From assembly GCF_044647545.1 (NCBI RefSeq), contig NZ_CP172818.1: a DNA stretch of 64,000 bases; one strand, written 5' to 3'. Made by a program: the position numbers and the translations under genes. Of this stretch, positions 1 through 9,355 are shown in pieces. Below the pieces are notes generated by a model. The model saw nothing but the letters and a program-made list of their open reading frames with translations, did not search any database and was not told the DNA's origin. Origin of the DNA: Escherichia coli. GTDB lineage: Bacteria > Pseudomonadota > Gammaproteobacteria > Enterobacterales > Enterobacteriaceae. Position 1 is the first letter of the stretch. The number at the start of each line of letters is the position of its first letter.

Positions 1-480
1 CGTTGGTGAAGTGCGGGTTGATTTGCAACGGGAACAGATTCAGCGCATCGAAACCTTGCGGATCGACAATCGGCATATCGTTGGTGGTACGAATGGTTGG
101 GCAAGCAAGGTTAGCGCCTGCGCTCCAGCCAATATACAGCGCGCCACGTTTCACCACGTCAGTAATTGGTGGCAGCAGCCCGCGCTCGCGGCACTGTTTC
201 AGCAACTGGAAAGTATTACCGCCGCCGACAATCACGATCTCAGCATTTTCAATCGCGGCAACGGGATCGACAACGCTATGAATACCGGTGACAGAAACAC
301 CCAGCGGAGCGAGAACCGCAGCCGTTTTCGCTGTGTAATCATCCCAGGTCTGCGTTACGCCAGCGAAAGGAATAAATACCGCTGAACGGCGACCCTGCAA
401 CTGTTCAGCAATCAGCGGCAGCGCGTGTTCCAGCCAGGCTTTACCCGGCAGCGTCGAGTTACTCAATAAAAGCAGTTCCA
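1..480 (-). CDS. pepE: Peptidase E (alpha-aspartyl dipeptidase), N-terminal ~160 codons; rest of gene lies beyond window start
   Basis: Reverse complement of 1-480 translates [30 protein letters not shown]...; ATG at 478-480 (complement) with GGAG upstream; recognised as PepE from memory. Not in ORF track because no stop in window. Confidence 0.9.
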
Positions 481-609
481 TTACTTCTCCGGTTAGTAAG
501 AAATCACGGGAGCCATGCTACCACTGTGATTTTAACCGCTTACTGACATGGCTCACGATGTTGCGCATTGCTTCTGGAAAGGATTTCCAGACGCAGGTCA
601 CGAATTTCC

Positions 610-3600
610 ATAAAACCAGACTGTTTTTTCATAAACACTCATTTACGATGACCCCCATCTCCCGAAAATCAGACAAACCACCATTACCGATAATCCCTAA
701 ACAAACACGAAAATCACCATACCGTTAATTTTTTTTTACAACGTACCATCACACTCAAACCACCCACAATCCACAAACTCGAAATGTCTTACTCATATAT
801 CACCACCCAGCGTTTGTAAACCATAACCAGTTGACGATTCCATTTTCACCATACCCCATTACAAACACCCAAACGAGCCCTCGTCATTTTTCACAAATTA
901 CCCCATATCGCTACGATATTCACCCCTTTACGAAACCCATTCACCCATACCATTTCATTTCAACGTACTGCATTGAAAATAAAAAAACACACCATATTCC
1001 AAATCCAAATCGCCACCCGTAACCCACGTTCCCCAACCATGACCCAACACCTCCAACGGTCCCATCAGCGACTTTATCCGTTAATTACCGTCATCAATTT
1101 CCCGCGTTCTCGCGCCTCTTCCATCGCATACGCCGATGACCCCACATACCCGTGTATTAAAACACCAGTTCCCTACCCCAACCTGATCCTCTTTTAATTA
1201 AATCGTTTGATCGATCATTCGTACAAAAACCCACCCGTGAATACTTCAAATTAAAGATGCCTTTCATACGCAAAACATGCTCACCAACCTCTTAATTTTT
1301 CTCTGTTCCATGATCTCCGTTAATCATCAATTCAACGTGATATTTCTGATGTTTCACTTTACCCACTGTGATTTAACTGATGTAACACCATGATCACGCA
1401 CGCCACCGAACCCACAGACTAACAGTACCACCTCAGAAACCGAGAAAAAGAAAGCATCAAATATTTCACCCCATCATCGAACACCATCGTAACCGACCAC
1501 CACGATAAAACCCCACAATCTCATCCAGGGTCACAAATCGAATCGCTCACATATTTTTATCATACCGCTACGAACAGCGAACAATCATCCGAACCAACGC
1601 CAATCTCACCCAACGCGAACATGCAGAATACAATCGAAACGTGTTCTTCCGCTGCTTTATCCGCCGCGTGCTGAAACTACGTGATTACCAAACACCGTCA
1701 CACCTCCTCCCACCAACAACGCGATCGATTCCTCGATGCTTTCTACCAACGATAACCAAATCGGAGATTATGCCGATCAGAATCCAAATCCCCCGCCGAG
1801 TTCATCCACCAACTATCAATTCCACGTACCACCACATAATTCGTTTTTAAATCACCAAATTAAACCAATCACCTACACAATTAACGACGATGATCTGAAA
1901 TTCATCCACACTCCCATTCCGCAATACAAAAAAAAAATATACAATAATTTTATACTTATTTCCATGATTTTCACCTTTTAATTCTCATCCCTCCTTTAAA
2001 CATATGTACACACGCTATTATTTAATTTGATTAATGTTCGTTTATTTTTCGATAATATTGATTAGATCTACCTACGAGCGTAAACCATATACCCAAGATT
2101 ATTTAATCATGAAACGTTAATAACTCATCTAATGAAATCTTTTTAACTGTTTCTTACCAAGTCACCATACCCCAATATTCATACCTATTTTTACCCCTCG
2201 AACCATTCTAACATCTTTCGATGAAAAGATAAAAAAGTTTCGTCCTATATTCGGGTTTGATAATCCGCGACGGCTTTTTCATATTACCACGTTAACCTTC
2301 ATTCCCGTCGCACCTACGCAATAATGTCCGGCGAATTCATCGTTATAAATTCGTCATTGCAGATAATAATGCGTTCGTTACCACTTTAACCAACGGTATA
2401 CCTCCGTGATCACGTCATCAATCCACGTAATGTTCATCAAAATCCTCCTCCGCTGTTCCACCTGTCTCCAACGACGCAGATTTCTTTCGATTTCTCCGTT
2501 CACAGAAATCCATCAATATTCATGCTTCCTGTTATCAACCATTCACCCACGCAGAGAAAGCCGCTGATTACCCCAACGAGATTCGCATCCAACATCGCTC
2601 CCATTCCACGGGCTCCGCACTGTAAACCACCAATCACCATCATCTTGATTTAATCTTACGTACTTTTCCACTTTCTACGATGTCTCCCGTTCTCGCCGCA
2701 CAAATTCAACCCTCGACCTCATCCGTATATCTAACTGATTCCACATCCAACTAATTTCCATCGCAAAAAATGCATTACCATAAAACCTGATCGTTTTTCC
2801 GCCCGCAATGTTATTTACTCCGTATAACCCGTTCAACACAGATAACAAACAAAATCACCATTCTCTAATCTTCCCCCCCAAAAATCGTTTTTTATACCTT
2901 CACGCACTGCTCGACGTGATATTCCGTCCACCCACCTTCTTCATATTCCCGTCCATCCTGTTTTTTCCAGAATCCCCCGCGATACCGACCACACGATACC
3001 GTCTTACCCATTCTTTCGACCAGACGATGAAGCTATTACGCACTTTATCGCGTACACTCTCCTTCTACCTTCCACCGACTTTCTAGAAACATTCACAATC
3101 ACCATGTGTTGTTCTACGTACCGTCCCCACCCTCGACATCAGAAAAAGTTTTTTATATACCATTTTTTCGAATCACTTCGTTATTCATACTCCCCACCTT
3201 TCTCATCACCACAACCGAAATTACCCGTTATTACCAACTCGATCACAAAATGATAATTTCTCTATATATTTACCTCTTCGCTTAGATTTCCCAAAATGAT
3301 ACCTTTACGATTCATATTTCCACCCACTAATATCACATCTTACATCCTTTCTAATAATTCACCACAACCAACCAATCCGACCATACAATAATATTTTACC
3401 AAATTTAAATTTCATAAACAATATTTTAGATAATAGACCCGTAATTTTTATATAAACATCGAAATTTTTATTCATAAATTCACTTTTATAAAAATTAATA
3501 TATTTTCCACCATGCAAACAATCTTATTTTTCTTCACCACAAGCCAAATGGAATATCTTTTTAATTTATTCATTCGATAAGATGTTTTTTCTCATATTCG

Positions 3601-4300
3601 TTTCAACCACCGTAATATCAAAAAACCGAGCAAATACGCCAGCAACCCGGGCATTCATCTCACTCTCTTCACCACCATAAAACCATCCATACCCTCCGAA
3701 TCCTACCAATTCCCACCACGACATCCAATTACCCATACAAATTTTTAAACCTAACTCATATCCCAACGAATTAATTTATCCACAACCGGAAAATCCCGAA
3801 TCGATTCCCCTTTCAACTCCCCTGTATTAATTTTTACATAACGCTTTCGATTTACCACGTCCGCCAATAATACCAGATTAACTCCCGATTCCCCCCCGCA
3901 ATTTTCAACATCCTCACCCCCCAGGAAAAACCAACAAACCCATCCACAACGACCACATCCCCTTAACCCCACACCCATTATCTCTTCATCCTCATCATTT
4001 CCCGACACACACAACTCTTTCAGCCAAACTTTTCTTCATCCCCACCAAGATTTTCTTATCATATACGATACAATTCCTCGACCCCTTTTAACAACTACGG
4101 TAAAACCACCCCGATCCCCTCATACCCAAAATCAACCACAATCAAACAATCTCACTTTTTCCATCCCTCTTTCCACATGCAAAACCTTTCCACCACGAAA
4201 ACACAGACTTTCAAACGATTTTTCACTCAAGAAAACGCTTTCTCCACATTTTTTCCAACACACACACACATTCAATATTGATTATCTTATTGCCACAAAA
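610..4300. other. Anomalous ORF-free, G-depleted (+ strand) block of ~3.7 kb between pepE and rluF; identity unknown
   Basis: Six-frame track shows only ORFs of 92 codons or fewer here; hand counts of several 60-nt lines give 2-7 G per 60 nt versus ~15 per 60 in flanks; A and C dominate. Boundaries approximate (left ~605-650, right ~4270-4310). Confidence 0.6.
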
Positions 4301-4422
4301 TTATCTATTTCCGGATACTTCTGTGATAAAAGCGGGCAGATCACATTAATTTCACGTTGCCTCATAACCCTTTTTTATCAACCCAAGAGGTACGGTATAT
4401 TCCGCGTTTTACAGGAGAATTT

Positions 4423-5358
4423 ATGCTGCCCGACTCATCAGTCCGTTTAAATAAATACATCAGCGAAAGCGGAATTTGCTCACGCCGCGAAGCGGATCGC
4501 TATATCGAGCAAGGCAATGTGTTCCTTAATGGCAAGCGAGCCACCATTGGCGATCAGGTGAAACCCGGCGACGTTGTGAAAGTAAACGGTCAGTTGATTG
4601 AGCCTCGGGAAGCCGAAGATTTGGTACTTATCGCCCTGAACAAGCCCGTCGGTATTGTCAGCACCACCGAAGATGGCGAGCGCGATAACATTGTCGATTT
4701 CGTTAACCACAGCAAACGCGTGTTCCCGATTGGCCGCCTGGATAAAGATTCCCAGGGGCTGATTTTCCTCACCAATCACGGCGATCTGGTGAATAAGATC
4801 CTCCGTGCGGGTAACGATCATGAGAAAGAGTATCTGGTGACGGTTGATAAACCGATTACCGATGAATTTATTCGTGGTATGGGGGCGGGAGTACCGATCC
4901 TCGGGACGGTAACTAAAAAGTGCAAAGTCAAAAAAGAAGCACCGTTTGTCTTCCGCATTACCCTGGTGCAGGGGCTGAACCGTCAGATTCGTCGCATGTG
5001 CGAGCACTTTGGTTACGAAGTGAAAAAGCTGGAACGTACGCGCATTATGAACGTCAGCTTAAGCGGCATTCCGCTGGGTGAGTGGCGCGATTTAACCGAC
5101 GATGAGTTAATCGATCTCTTTAAGCTCATTGAAAATTCCTCTTCCGAGGCAAAACCTAAAGCGAAGGCCAAACCGAAAACGGTAGGCATCAAACGTCCAG
5201 TCGTTAAGATGGAAAAAACGGTGGAAAAAGGCGGTCGCCCGGCGTCCAACGGTAAGCGTTTTACCTCGCCGGGGCGTAAAAAGAAGGGGGATCAGCGCCT
5301 GCCGCGCGTCGACGTATTTGCTGACCAGCTAAATGACGCCTCAGGATCCGGTTTATAA
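4423..5358 (+). CDS. rluF: 23S rRNA pseudouridine synthase RluF (S4 domain plus pseudouridine synthase domain)
   Basis: ORF 4357-5358; protein [45 protein letters not shown]... from ATG 4423. Frame as read here is 311 codons and overlaps yjbD; from memory K-12 RluF is 290 aa, so the 3' end is uncertain. Confidence 0.85.
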
Positions 5359-5564
5359 GCCTGCTTTTTCTTCAATTGGCGGGCTTTTTTCGCTTCAGCC
5401 TCACGCTCGACCATTAATTTATCGATGTACTCTTTCTTAATGCTGTTAGTTTCGGAGTTGGTCAGTACGCGACCATGCGCAATCCGCGCCCGATCCAGCA
5501 GTGTTTTAAGTTCACGCTGCTCGCGTTCAGTCATCTCTTTTTGGGTAATACGGGGGAGTGCCAT
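5292..5564 (-). CDS. yjbD: Small conserved protein YjbD (DUF3811)
   Basis: 90-aa [37 protein letters not shown]...; position between rluF and lysC. Confidence 0.8.
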
Positions 5565-5815
5565 GATGGTGCCCTCAGTGAGCCAGAGAGTTCAGTGTAC
5601 GGGAATTCGTTTGCGAGCAGAACTGATAATATTCATTTTGCCTTCTCTTAACTATTTATCTCTTTCGATAATTAGCGATAAATACAGATAAAAATTTAAC
5701 GCAAATTATTATCCGATAAAGACGCTGGTTAACAGAGTACAGGCTCGTTTATTGATGAGCATAGTGACAAGAAAATCAATACGGCCCGAAATATAGCTTC
5801 CAGGCCATACAGTAT

Positions 5816-9339: not shown

Positions 9340-9355
9340 TTAAAAACCTTAATAA

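Follow-up and report, generated by a model that had tools for sequence, protein, structure and literature searches.

Our alignments and composition scans of a 64,000-nt stretch of Escherichia coli DNA (contig NZ_CP172818.1; hereafter the window) indicate that the G-poor block lying between pepE and rluF is very probably a corrupted representation of an ST648-type strain's own L-sorbose (sor) operon, an artefact at the level of the record with 2 kb missing at the pepE end. Judged by nucleotide alignment, the block is an altered version of the ordinary sor operon in its normal site and not an independent genetic element, and as written the locus encodes nothing. We know of no evolutionary or enzymatic process that strips single G's by the hundred from one strand while leaving substitutions out, and since the pattern has no known biological producer it is almost certainly corrupted data rather than a new genetic element. 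The case carries a warning, as a compositional anomaly of this sort invites the call of a novel non-coding island yet represents a mangled common catabolic operon, and a sorbose-positive strain would be annotated without six or seven of its genes.

Composition of the pepE-rluF interval

The + strand contains only 9.0% G at positions 607-4305, against 26% elsewhere in the window (333 G in 3,699 nt; binomial p = 8e-156 relative to the window background), and the bases of 610-4300 are A 31.4%, C 31.1%, G 9.0% and T 28.5%. Composition and skew in 200-nt windows thus bear out the strong + strand G depletion (9.0% G, p ~1e-155) that a sequence-only reading had described for 610-4300: GC skew lies between -0.22 and -0.77 in each 200-nt window of 601-4400 and at about 0 outside, and the flanks of the block hold 25-26% G. 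The edges of the G-poor block are sharp, with normal G at 578-606 and an onset of loss at about 607; at the other end the loss fades out over 4300-4384, and a perfect match to the ST648 reference resumes from about 4385. We found no second block of the same kind in the 64-kb window, where the minimum G content of other 3.7-kb stretches was 21.5% and no 500-nt window outside the block fell below 13% in G or C. CG dinucleotides in the block occur at 1.79 times expectation, with 185 of the 333 surviving G's coming after a C. The longest ORF of the block is 92 aa (2808-3086, + strand), in agreement with the earlier statement that nothing above 92 codons occurs in the pepE-rluF span. The same reading had placed the rluF ATG correctly at 4423, and had put the pepE start codon (- strand) at 478-480, which we correct to 479-481.

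The block derives from the ST648-type sor operon

Over its full length the block is collinear in alignment with the sorEMABFDC L-sorbose operon (- strand) of strain FDAARGOS_497, in which the pepE-sor-rluF arrangement is annotated (locus L001, our alignment reference), and a BLAST-type search recovers this parent at about 75-84% 'identity' despite the deletions. The sor operon is known to adjoin rluF in E. coli and to be missing from MG1655, and corresponds to genes Ec042-4384-4390 of EAEC 042 (PMC2808357). In our comparison set of 5,426 complete E. coli genomes it sits at pepE-rluF in about 2,870, an intact ST648 example being NZ_CP033850.1 1807984-1814752. Its products import L-sorbose by a mannose-family PTS and convert sorbose-1-phosphate through glucitol-6-phosphate to fructose-6-phosphate, under SorC control. 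The block shares with this operon the site between pepE and rluF, gene order, orientation, nucleotide homology over its entire length and the ST648-type allele; it differs in lacking any intact gene, with about 22% of bases gone in gaps of 1-3 nt, in the absence of sorE and the adjoining shikimate-dehydrogenase-like gene, and in junctions that carry bases of sor-less alleles. The first reading had recognised no E. coli gene here, which proves wrong, the operon having been masked by some 1,050 single-base deletions. Its view of the block as an insertion relative to K-12 holds, whereas a foreign or novel origin does not: this is a common accessory operon in its usual place, and we found no foreign sequence in the block, inserted bases totalling only 7.

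Transferring the L001 annotation through the global alignment gave the coordinates of the sor remnants. The 5' part of pepE (1-481, - strand) is unaltered, and window positions 1-577 are 100% identical to L001 501-1077 of FDAARGOS_497. At the left junction (577/578), local and global alignments agree that 2,004 bp of the ST648 reference (L001 1078-3081) have no counterpart; the missing sequence comprises a shikimate 5-dehydrogenase-like gene and all of sorE beyond its first 57 nt, which survive as a 5'-end remnant at 578-632 (- strand) with normal G at 578-606 and loss from about 607. There follow, all on the - strand, the remnants of sorM (PTS EIID; 669-1311, 825 nt reduced to 643 nt, G 8.6%), sorA (PTS EIIC; 1320-1965, 798 to 646 nt, G 11.3%), sorB (PTS EIIB; 2022-2437, 495 to 416 nt), sorF (PTS EIIA; 2437-2781, 408 to 345 nt), sorD (SDR oxidoreductase; 2789-3415, 807 to 627 nt) and sorC (sugar-binding transcriptional regulator; 3468-4164, 948 to 697 nt, G 6.0%), the last with frequent losses of T and C as well. 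Beyond it, the sorC-rluF intergenic region (4165-4384) is altered too, with G loss tapering from about 4300 and the ST648 and sor-less alleles blended at 4336-4386. Homology to sorM, sorA, sorB, sorF, sorD and sorC is collinear throughout (3,664 matched bases, 26 substitutions and 7 insertions), and none of the PTS EII components, SorD, SorE or SorC keeps an intact frame, each gene being 15-26% shorter through gaps of 1-3 nt.

The choice of parent is likewise well constrained. At every retained site where five natural alleles differ (185 of 185) the block carries the ST648-type base, ST648 ranks first when alleles are scored on the block alone, and the window flanks outside the altered span are 100% identical to the ST648 type. 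A different or older sor allele as parent was rejected, given this ranking and the finding that none of 30 substitutions is explained by any of the four other natural sor alleles.

Bases were deleted, not substituted

Aligned to the ST648 parent, the interval 607-4305 has lost 785 of 1113 G's, compared with 137 of 1179 T's, 116 of 1259 C's and 8 of 1159 A's. About 70% of the + strand G's were therefore removed as single-base deletions, and the remainder is more than 99% identical to the parent. The 1,046 deleted bases stand against 26 substitutions and 7 insertions, or about 40 deletions per substitution, at a deletion density of about 220 per kb that is G-specific and confined to one strand. 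Gaps measure 1-3 nt, 418 of them consisting of one G each, and loss rates change smoothly along the block. The excess of A and C arises because G was removed, as 1,140 A's in 4,662 nt become 31% of 3,649 nt.

Loss of G depends on its surroundings. From the two neighbours on each side it could be predicted with a cross-validated AUC of 0.81, following a rule in which G is kept in CG[A/T] and lost in [A/T]G[C/T]. Sparing contexts include GCGAT (13 of 14 kept), GCGTT (10/10) and GCGAA (7/7), and losing contexts CAGCA (1 of 17 kept), CAGCC (0/11) and TTGCG (0/10). Viewed from the - strand, GCT, ACT and GCA are hit most and TCG and ACG least, with both neighbours and the +/-2 positions contributing. 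Retained G's are also mildly clustered (runs test z = -3.5), and the context dependence and this clustering together led us to reject a model of uniform random per-base deletion. Retention at codon positions 1-3 was 28%, 32% and 44%, a phase effect too weak to point to selection. We also asked whether Dam (GATC) or Dcm (CCWGG) sites drive the loss and set the idea aside, since no rule held consistently, though T is often lost in GATCG.

Both junctions carry bases of sor-less alleles

The altered span, 578-4384, is exactly the stretch in which sor-positive and sor-less alleles differ, and both of its junctions blend sor-positive ST648 with sor-less alleles. On the left, the breakpoint, CATTGCTTCTGG followed by AAAG, is identical to that of sor-less genomes, and among the 5,426 complete genomes we found no better match across it than that of the sor-less type (93.5%). 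Positions 578-606 then mix ST648 sorE with the sor-less 'scar', showing an additional A at 583 and an additional AA at 603-604. On the right, the 16-mer TTTTTTATCAACCCAA at 4371-4386 is of the sor-less type only and absent from the ST648 locus; among the 5,426 genomes we found no full-length match above about 92% to 4296-4460 or 4336-4440. The pepE-rluF scar of the K-12/E24377A type thus shares with the window its breakpoint (CTTCTGG before AAAG), the motifs GATTT and ACGAATT, and the 16-mer just upstream of rluF, and differs in that the window keeps 3.7 kb of sor-derived sequence between the scar pieces. The pepE-rluF gap in sor-less E24377A is 211 bp, which supports the statement in the first reading that K-12 has a gap of a few hundred bp.

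We considered whether a simple majority vote of sor-positive and sor-less genomes might have generated the sequence. Such a vote accounts for the boundaries and the junction blends only; it is insufficient because sorE is wholly lost though it is as prevalent (2,867 genomes, the same count as the remaining sor genes) as the other, merely thinned sor genes, and the G specificity also goes unexplained.

Possible origins of the block

The deletion-type G loss, the junction blends and the ST648 identity favour an artefact or computationally altered sequence, one of the explanations offered in the first reading, whose 'foreign' component was not borne out. We infer that the corruption arose in data handling and not in the DNA. 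Its most likely route would be computational, a step in which other E. coli sequences were consulted and 'base or gap' was chosen at each position, examples being consensus building or polishing against related or mixed genomes, generation by a model, or deliberate editing. Ambiguity letters, had they been stripped from the record, would on their own account for deletions of this kind. The chromosome itself most likely has an ordinary sor operon, either intact or minus the 2 kb. Three points temper the artefact reading: the loss profile fits no documented artefact among those we compared, the loss affects one strand only with the other bases too accurate for a single noisy read, and the block coincides with one transcription unit whose template is the G-poor strand, as a transcription-linked biological process would likewise predict.

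An ordinary basecalling failure is less likely. The region would then stem from a single long read, or a few, all of the same strand, with a basecaller that systematically did not emit G and polishing that left this uncorrected; we regard this as unlikely, while giving it real weight. Like long-read consensus errors (nanopore or PacBio), the changes show deletions greatly exceeding substitutions within the block, and the same holds for the remaining private differences of the window, which are small indels; the dependence of G loss on both neighbours is k-mer-like, as a signal-level caller would give, and the smooth drift of loss rates fits as well. However, A, C and T are retained at about 99%, 91% and 88%, with insertions at 0.2% and substitutions at 0.7%, which is much cleaner than raw-read sequence, and an error tract has no reason to begin and end at the divergence points of sor-positive and sor-less alleles or to carry sor-less bases at both junctions. 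The false deletions documented for nanopore data sit mainly in homopolymers and are sparse (PMC11927395). Ordinary long-read errors are homopolymer-centred, sparse indels on either strand, whereas here 70% of one strand's G's, mostly isolated (451 of 701 isolated G's lost), are missing over 3.7 kb with exact island boundaries.

It is very improbable that the block is physically real, with the template strand of the sor operon's transcription unit stripped of G's by a strand-specific process, for example through excision or depurination of G and subsequent -1 bypass, or through copying with skipped template C's and then re-integration. Supporting it, the block covers exactly the truncated sorC-to-sorE' transcription unit and its upstream region, its G-poor strand is the template strand so that the sequence resembles a cDNA of sor mRNA, and the context dependence could mirror the preference of an enzyme. 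Against it, T and C were lost as well, the blends with sor-less alleles at the junctions are left unexplained, and the damage continues past sorC on its upstream side for about 220 nt, reaching the rluF promoter region. The block is moreover found in no other genome: no block-like sequence was present among the 5,426 complete E. coli genomes, and exact 55-nt and 40-nt block signatures had no match in GTDB representative genomes or JGI metagenomes. Bypass of abasic sites in E. coli gives mainly substitutions or a replication block, and to our knowledge no polymerase, glycosylase, reverse transcriptase or repair pathway leaves some 1,050 clean single-base deletions within 4.7 kb while introducing hardly any substitutions. 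Slightly more improbable still is a so far unknown strand-specific process that deletes G's from the template strand of one transcription unit or accessory island, perhaps by targeted G excision with -1 bypass or by error-prone copying that omits template C's and then replaces the chromosomal copy, and that in one lineage reduced a formerly intact sor operon to the present G-poor form. Were the block real, it would imply a mutational mechanism without precedent.

Strand-specific cytosine deamination on the - strand (APOBEC/AID-like, bisulfite-like or by a T7-polymerase-deaminase mutator), which had also been proposed, merits next to no credence. Hypermutation by deaminases (APOBEC3G-type, MutaT7-type) or bisulfite does resemble the block in its depletion of G from one strand over a defined tract with CpG relatively spared, and both the strong asymmetry and the CpG enrichment of surviving G's would be in keeping with it. 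Deamination, though, preserves length and yields G>A, and base-by-base alignment to the parent rules it out, with about 5 G>A changes against the 785 deleted G's and a block about 1,040 nt shorter than the parent. The A excess is fully accounted for by renormalisation after G loss, and the losses do not follow deaminase target preference for the 5' neighbour of C (TC, CC, WRC). Counting gaps against mismatches thus tells a deletion artefact from hypermutation at once.

Hardly any probability attaches either to an old natural sor pseudogene or to a novel non-coding or foreign element with a functional G-free transcript; the lack of long ORFs, and the dispensability of the rest of the operon once sorE is lost, would suit these, but the block shows zero divergence from ST648 at the informative sites, which with its ratio of deletions to substitutions is the opposite of neutral decay, where substitutions at least equal indels and alleles diverge from their sisters, and the large non-coding locus suggested earlier finds no support, as Rfam 15 covariance models gave no match at E<=1 on either strand of 400-4600 and the block is in all its parts collinear with protein-coding sor genes.

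Other private changes in the window

The same record carries smaller suspicious edits, with the stop codons of rluF and psiE lost and one terminator arm deleted. rluF (4423-5358, + strand) is 100% identical to ST648 except near 5290, where GGGGCGTTAATC has become GGGGGATC and the stop codon is removed; the ORF consequently runs 21 codons longer, antisense into yjbD. Neither the resulting 311-aa RluF product nor the 145-aa PsiE variant is on record, and the rluF stop, psiE and yjcE/actP variants are absent from the 5,426 complete genomes. One prophage absence in the window is apparently natural. The further private changes are nearly all small deletions, intergenic or at gene ends, at the rluF stop, the psiE upstream region and stop (13915-14458), the first base beyond the pgi stop and the yjcE/actP terminator (53595-53623), and several of the other private indels adjoin homopolymers. 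Private substitutions are few, with one in a DUF2713-family gene and five clustered at the dusA 5' end.

Identity of the block

Between pepE and rluF lies a block (about 607-4305) in which G makes up only 9.0% of the + strand (333/3,699 nt) vs 26.3% outside the block (binomial p = 8e-156) and the longest ORF is 92 aa, confirming the G-depleted, ORF-free stretch described in the sequence-only reading. GC skew is strongly negative in all 200-nt windows of 601-4400 and near zero outside. The lowest G content of any other 3.7-kb stretch of the window is 21.5%, and no second G- or C-poor 500-nt stretch (<13%) was found elsewhere in it. The left edge is sharp (about 607), the right edge gradual (4300-4384).

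No E. coli gene had been recognised here, which proved mistaken: of 5,426 complete E. coli genomes searched by megablast with window 1-5400, 2,816 match with a query coverage of at least 80% and ~84% identity, and the annotation beneath these matches is the L-sorbose operon. In L001, the reference locus from ST648-type strain FDAARGOS_497, the pepE-rluF interval holds, all on the - strand, a shikimate-5-dehydrogenase-like gene, sorE, four mannose-family PTS genes (IID, IIC, IIB, IIA), an SDR oxidoreductase and a SorC-type regulator. We take the annotated products to be sorM, sorA, sorB, sorF and sorD, by the published gene order and the Klebsiella and E. coli sor operon. This gene set is the sorEMABFDC operon that adjoins rluF in EAEC 042 and is missing from MG1655 (PMC2808357). 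Window 1-577 and 4385-5700 match FDAARGOS_497 with 100% identity, the rluF stop codon change being the sole exception, and the remainder is 99.93-99.94% identical to ST648-type genomes. At the level of sequence, these comparisons show the block to be the native sor operon with G-specific single-base deletions on one strand. The proposal of a large non-coding locus thus falls, the block being the sor operon and matching no described RNA family. The shikimate-5-dehydrogenase-like gene (L001 1104-1916, between pepE and sorE, in the reference only) occurs in 177/5,426 genomes and sorE with the remaining operon in ~2,867/5,426, so the pepE-proximal end of the sor island is itself polymorphic.

Losses relative to the parent allele

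With the block as sole query, the ST648 allele ranked first. Among five natural sor alleles, mutually 97-99% identical, 233 block columns are polymorphic; 185 are kept in the window, and all 185 carry the ST648 base, while none of 30 substitutions (0/30) matches a natural variant in these five alleles. The parent is evidently the strain's own allele, at no evolutionary distance. An old pseudogene is rejected, since about a thousand indels would bring substitution divergence and the block shows none; foreign DNA is ruled out by the mere 7 inserted bases.

In a global alignment limited to L001 3111-7846 and window 607-4305 we counted 3,664 matches, 26 substitutions, 7 inserted bases and 1,046 missing reference bases, namely 785/1,113 G (70.5%), 137/1,179 T (11.6%), 116/1,259 C (9.2%) and 8/1,159 A (0.7%). 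The differences are gaps, not mismatches, of 1-3 nt each; single-G gaps number 418. Only ~5 G>A changes stand against the 785 missing G's, which refutes the - strand deamination put forward in the sequence-only reading and, with it, substitutional hypermutation. A rises from 1,140 of 4,662 nt in the parent to 31% of 3,649 nt in the block, whose high A + C content is the remainder after G removal, and ORFs are absent because the sor genes have each lost 15-26% of their length. A further 2,004 bp (L001 1078-3081), comprising the shikimate-dehydrogenase-like gene and sorE except its first 57 nt, has no counterpart in the window.

G loss is not uniform. Overall 36% of isolated G's are kept, ranging from nearly all in some contexts (GCGAT 13/14, GCGTT 10/10, GCGAA 7/7) to almost none in others (CAGCA 1/17, CAGCC 0/11, TTGCG 0/10, CTGCC 0/9), and a logistic model of loss on two neighbours per side reaches a cross-validated AUC of 0.81. 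Codon phase (positions 1-3) has a weak influence on retention, and kept G's are mildly clustered (runs test z = -3.5). The G fraction lost is 55-70% mid-block and 75-90% near both ends. Losses of T and C climb across sorC and the upstream region; T is often missing in the context ATC, several GATCG sites included, and no clean motif for T loss emerged.

Boundaries and origin

The altered span, 578-4384, coincides exactly with the stretch that distinguishes sor-positive from sor-less alleles. Sor-less strain E24377A has a pepE-rluF gap of 211 bp, and its intergenic scar starts with CTTCTGG|AAAGTGATTTGAGCAGGTAACGAATTC and ends with TTTTTTATCAACCCAAAGGTACGG. The window's left breakpoint is that of this scar, and the first 29 nt of the junction are ST648 sorE sequence plus three extra A's that restore the scar motifs GATTT and ACGAATT. 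The 50 nt preceding rluF mix ST648-specific and scar-specific bases and contain the exact scar 16-mer TTTTTTATCAACCCAA, missing from the ST648 locus. In the two junction stretches, which have a counterpart in both allele types, 9/14 and 9/11 G's are kept. Neither junction occurs among the 5,426 genomes.

Damage that matches a presence/absence polymorphism, with alleles blended at both junctions, points to a computational step and favours the earlier suggestion of an artefact or computationally altered sequence. Deaminases produce substitutions, abasic-site bypass in E. coli produces substitutions or stalling, slippage acts on runs, and neutral decay brings substitutions as well as indels; to our knowledge none of these gives ~220 clean one-strand deletions per kb at zero divergence. 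Because established mutational processes do not yield such deletions, we infer that the block is not a real feature and that the DNA itself does not have this G-depleted sequence. Searches of GTDB representative genomes and JGI metagenomes for signature sequences of the block gave no hits. A step 'aware' of sor-less genomes might have made base-or-gap choices position by position, candidates being consensus or polishing against related or mixed sequences, and generated or edited sequence. A simple prevalence vote is rejected, as it leaves unexplained the total loss of sorE, present in 2,867 genomes (the shikimate-dehydrogenase-like gene in only 177).

A narrow basecalling failure is a possible source that fits less well, the non-G bases being too accurate and the boundaries too exact; ordinary nanopore errors are mostly homopolymeric (PMC11927395), unlike the block's loss profile. 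We consider it highly improbable that a real transcription- or island-targeted process deleted G's in the cell, even though the block and the truncated sor transcription unit have the same extent and the G-poor strand is the unit's template strand.

Other private differences in the window

Elsewhere, small deletions at non-coding or gene-end positions make up nearly all of the window's private differences. The rluF stop is removed at 5285-5358 (ST648 GGGGCGTTAATCAG to GGGGGATCAG), which lengthens RluF to 311 aa (from 290), the extension running antisense into yjbD. Upstream of psiE (13915-13918) TTG and two single T's are deleted, and the loss of one C and one T in its last codons (14453-14458) abolishes the stop, so that PsiE has 145 aa vs ~136 aa (reference gene length). 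At the terminator between the convergent yjcE and actP (53595-53623), a 6-nt deletion directly follows the yjcE stop, and the hairpin AAAGGTGC...GCACCTTT loses its 3' arm to a second deletion, of 12 nt. The rluF stop, psiE and yjcE/actP variants were not found among the 5,426 complete genomes, nor were database records found for the 311-aa RluF and 145-aa PsiE. The yjcE-actP intergenic region is highly polymorphic, with only 263 genomes covering at least 80% of it. One T is deleted right after the pgi stop codon at 9340 (TAATTTAAAA to TAATTAAAA), the sole ST648 difference within several kb.

Private substitutions are few: one in a DUF2713-family gene and five clustered at the dusA 5' end. In the former gene, the frameshift from a T deletion is compensated 5 nt on by an A insertion, within an A/T-rich run (32338-32343); further along come one T>C and, past the gene, an additional C in a run of C's (32807, 33264). 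The dusA changes (G>A, three C>T, G>T; 33621-33689, compared with CUVET20-PYO4) fall in its first 75 nt. In FDAARGOS_497, dusA is the insertion site of an island and prophage genes; the five substitutions look like what a dusA-integrating element would leave on replacing the gene's 5' end, but the window carries no such element.

Between yjbD and lysC, 34.8 kb of FDAARGOS_497 (slipin and nucleotidyltransferase genes, plus a P2-like prophage split by a tet(A)/OXA-1/CTX-M-15 resistance region) is not in the window, where an unrelated 99-nt segment occupies the site (5716-5814). This absence looks like natural presence/absence variation, because non-ST648 genomes such as AR_0077 match the window around 5716-5814 in a single piece.
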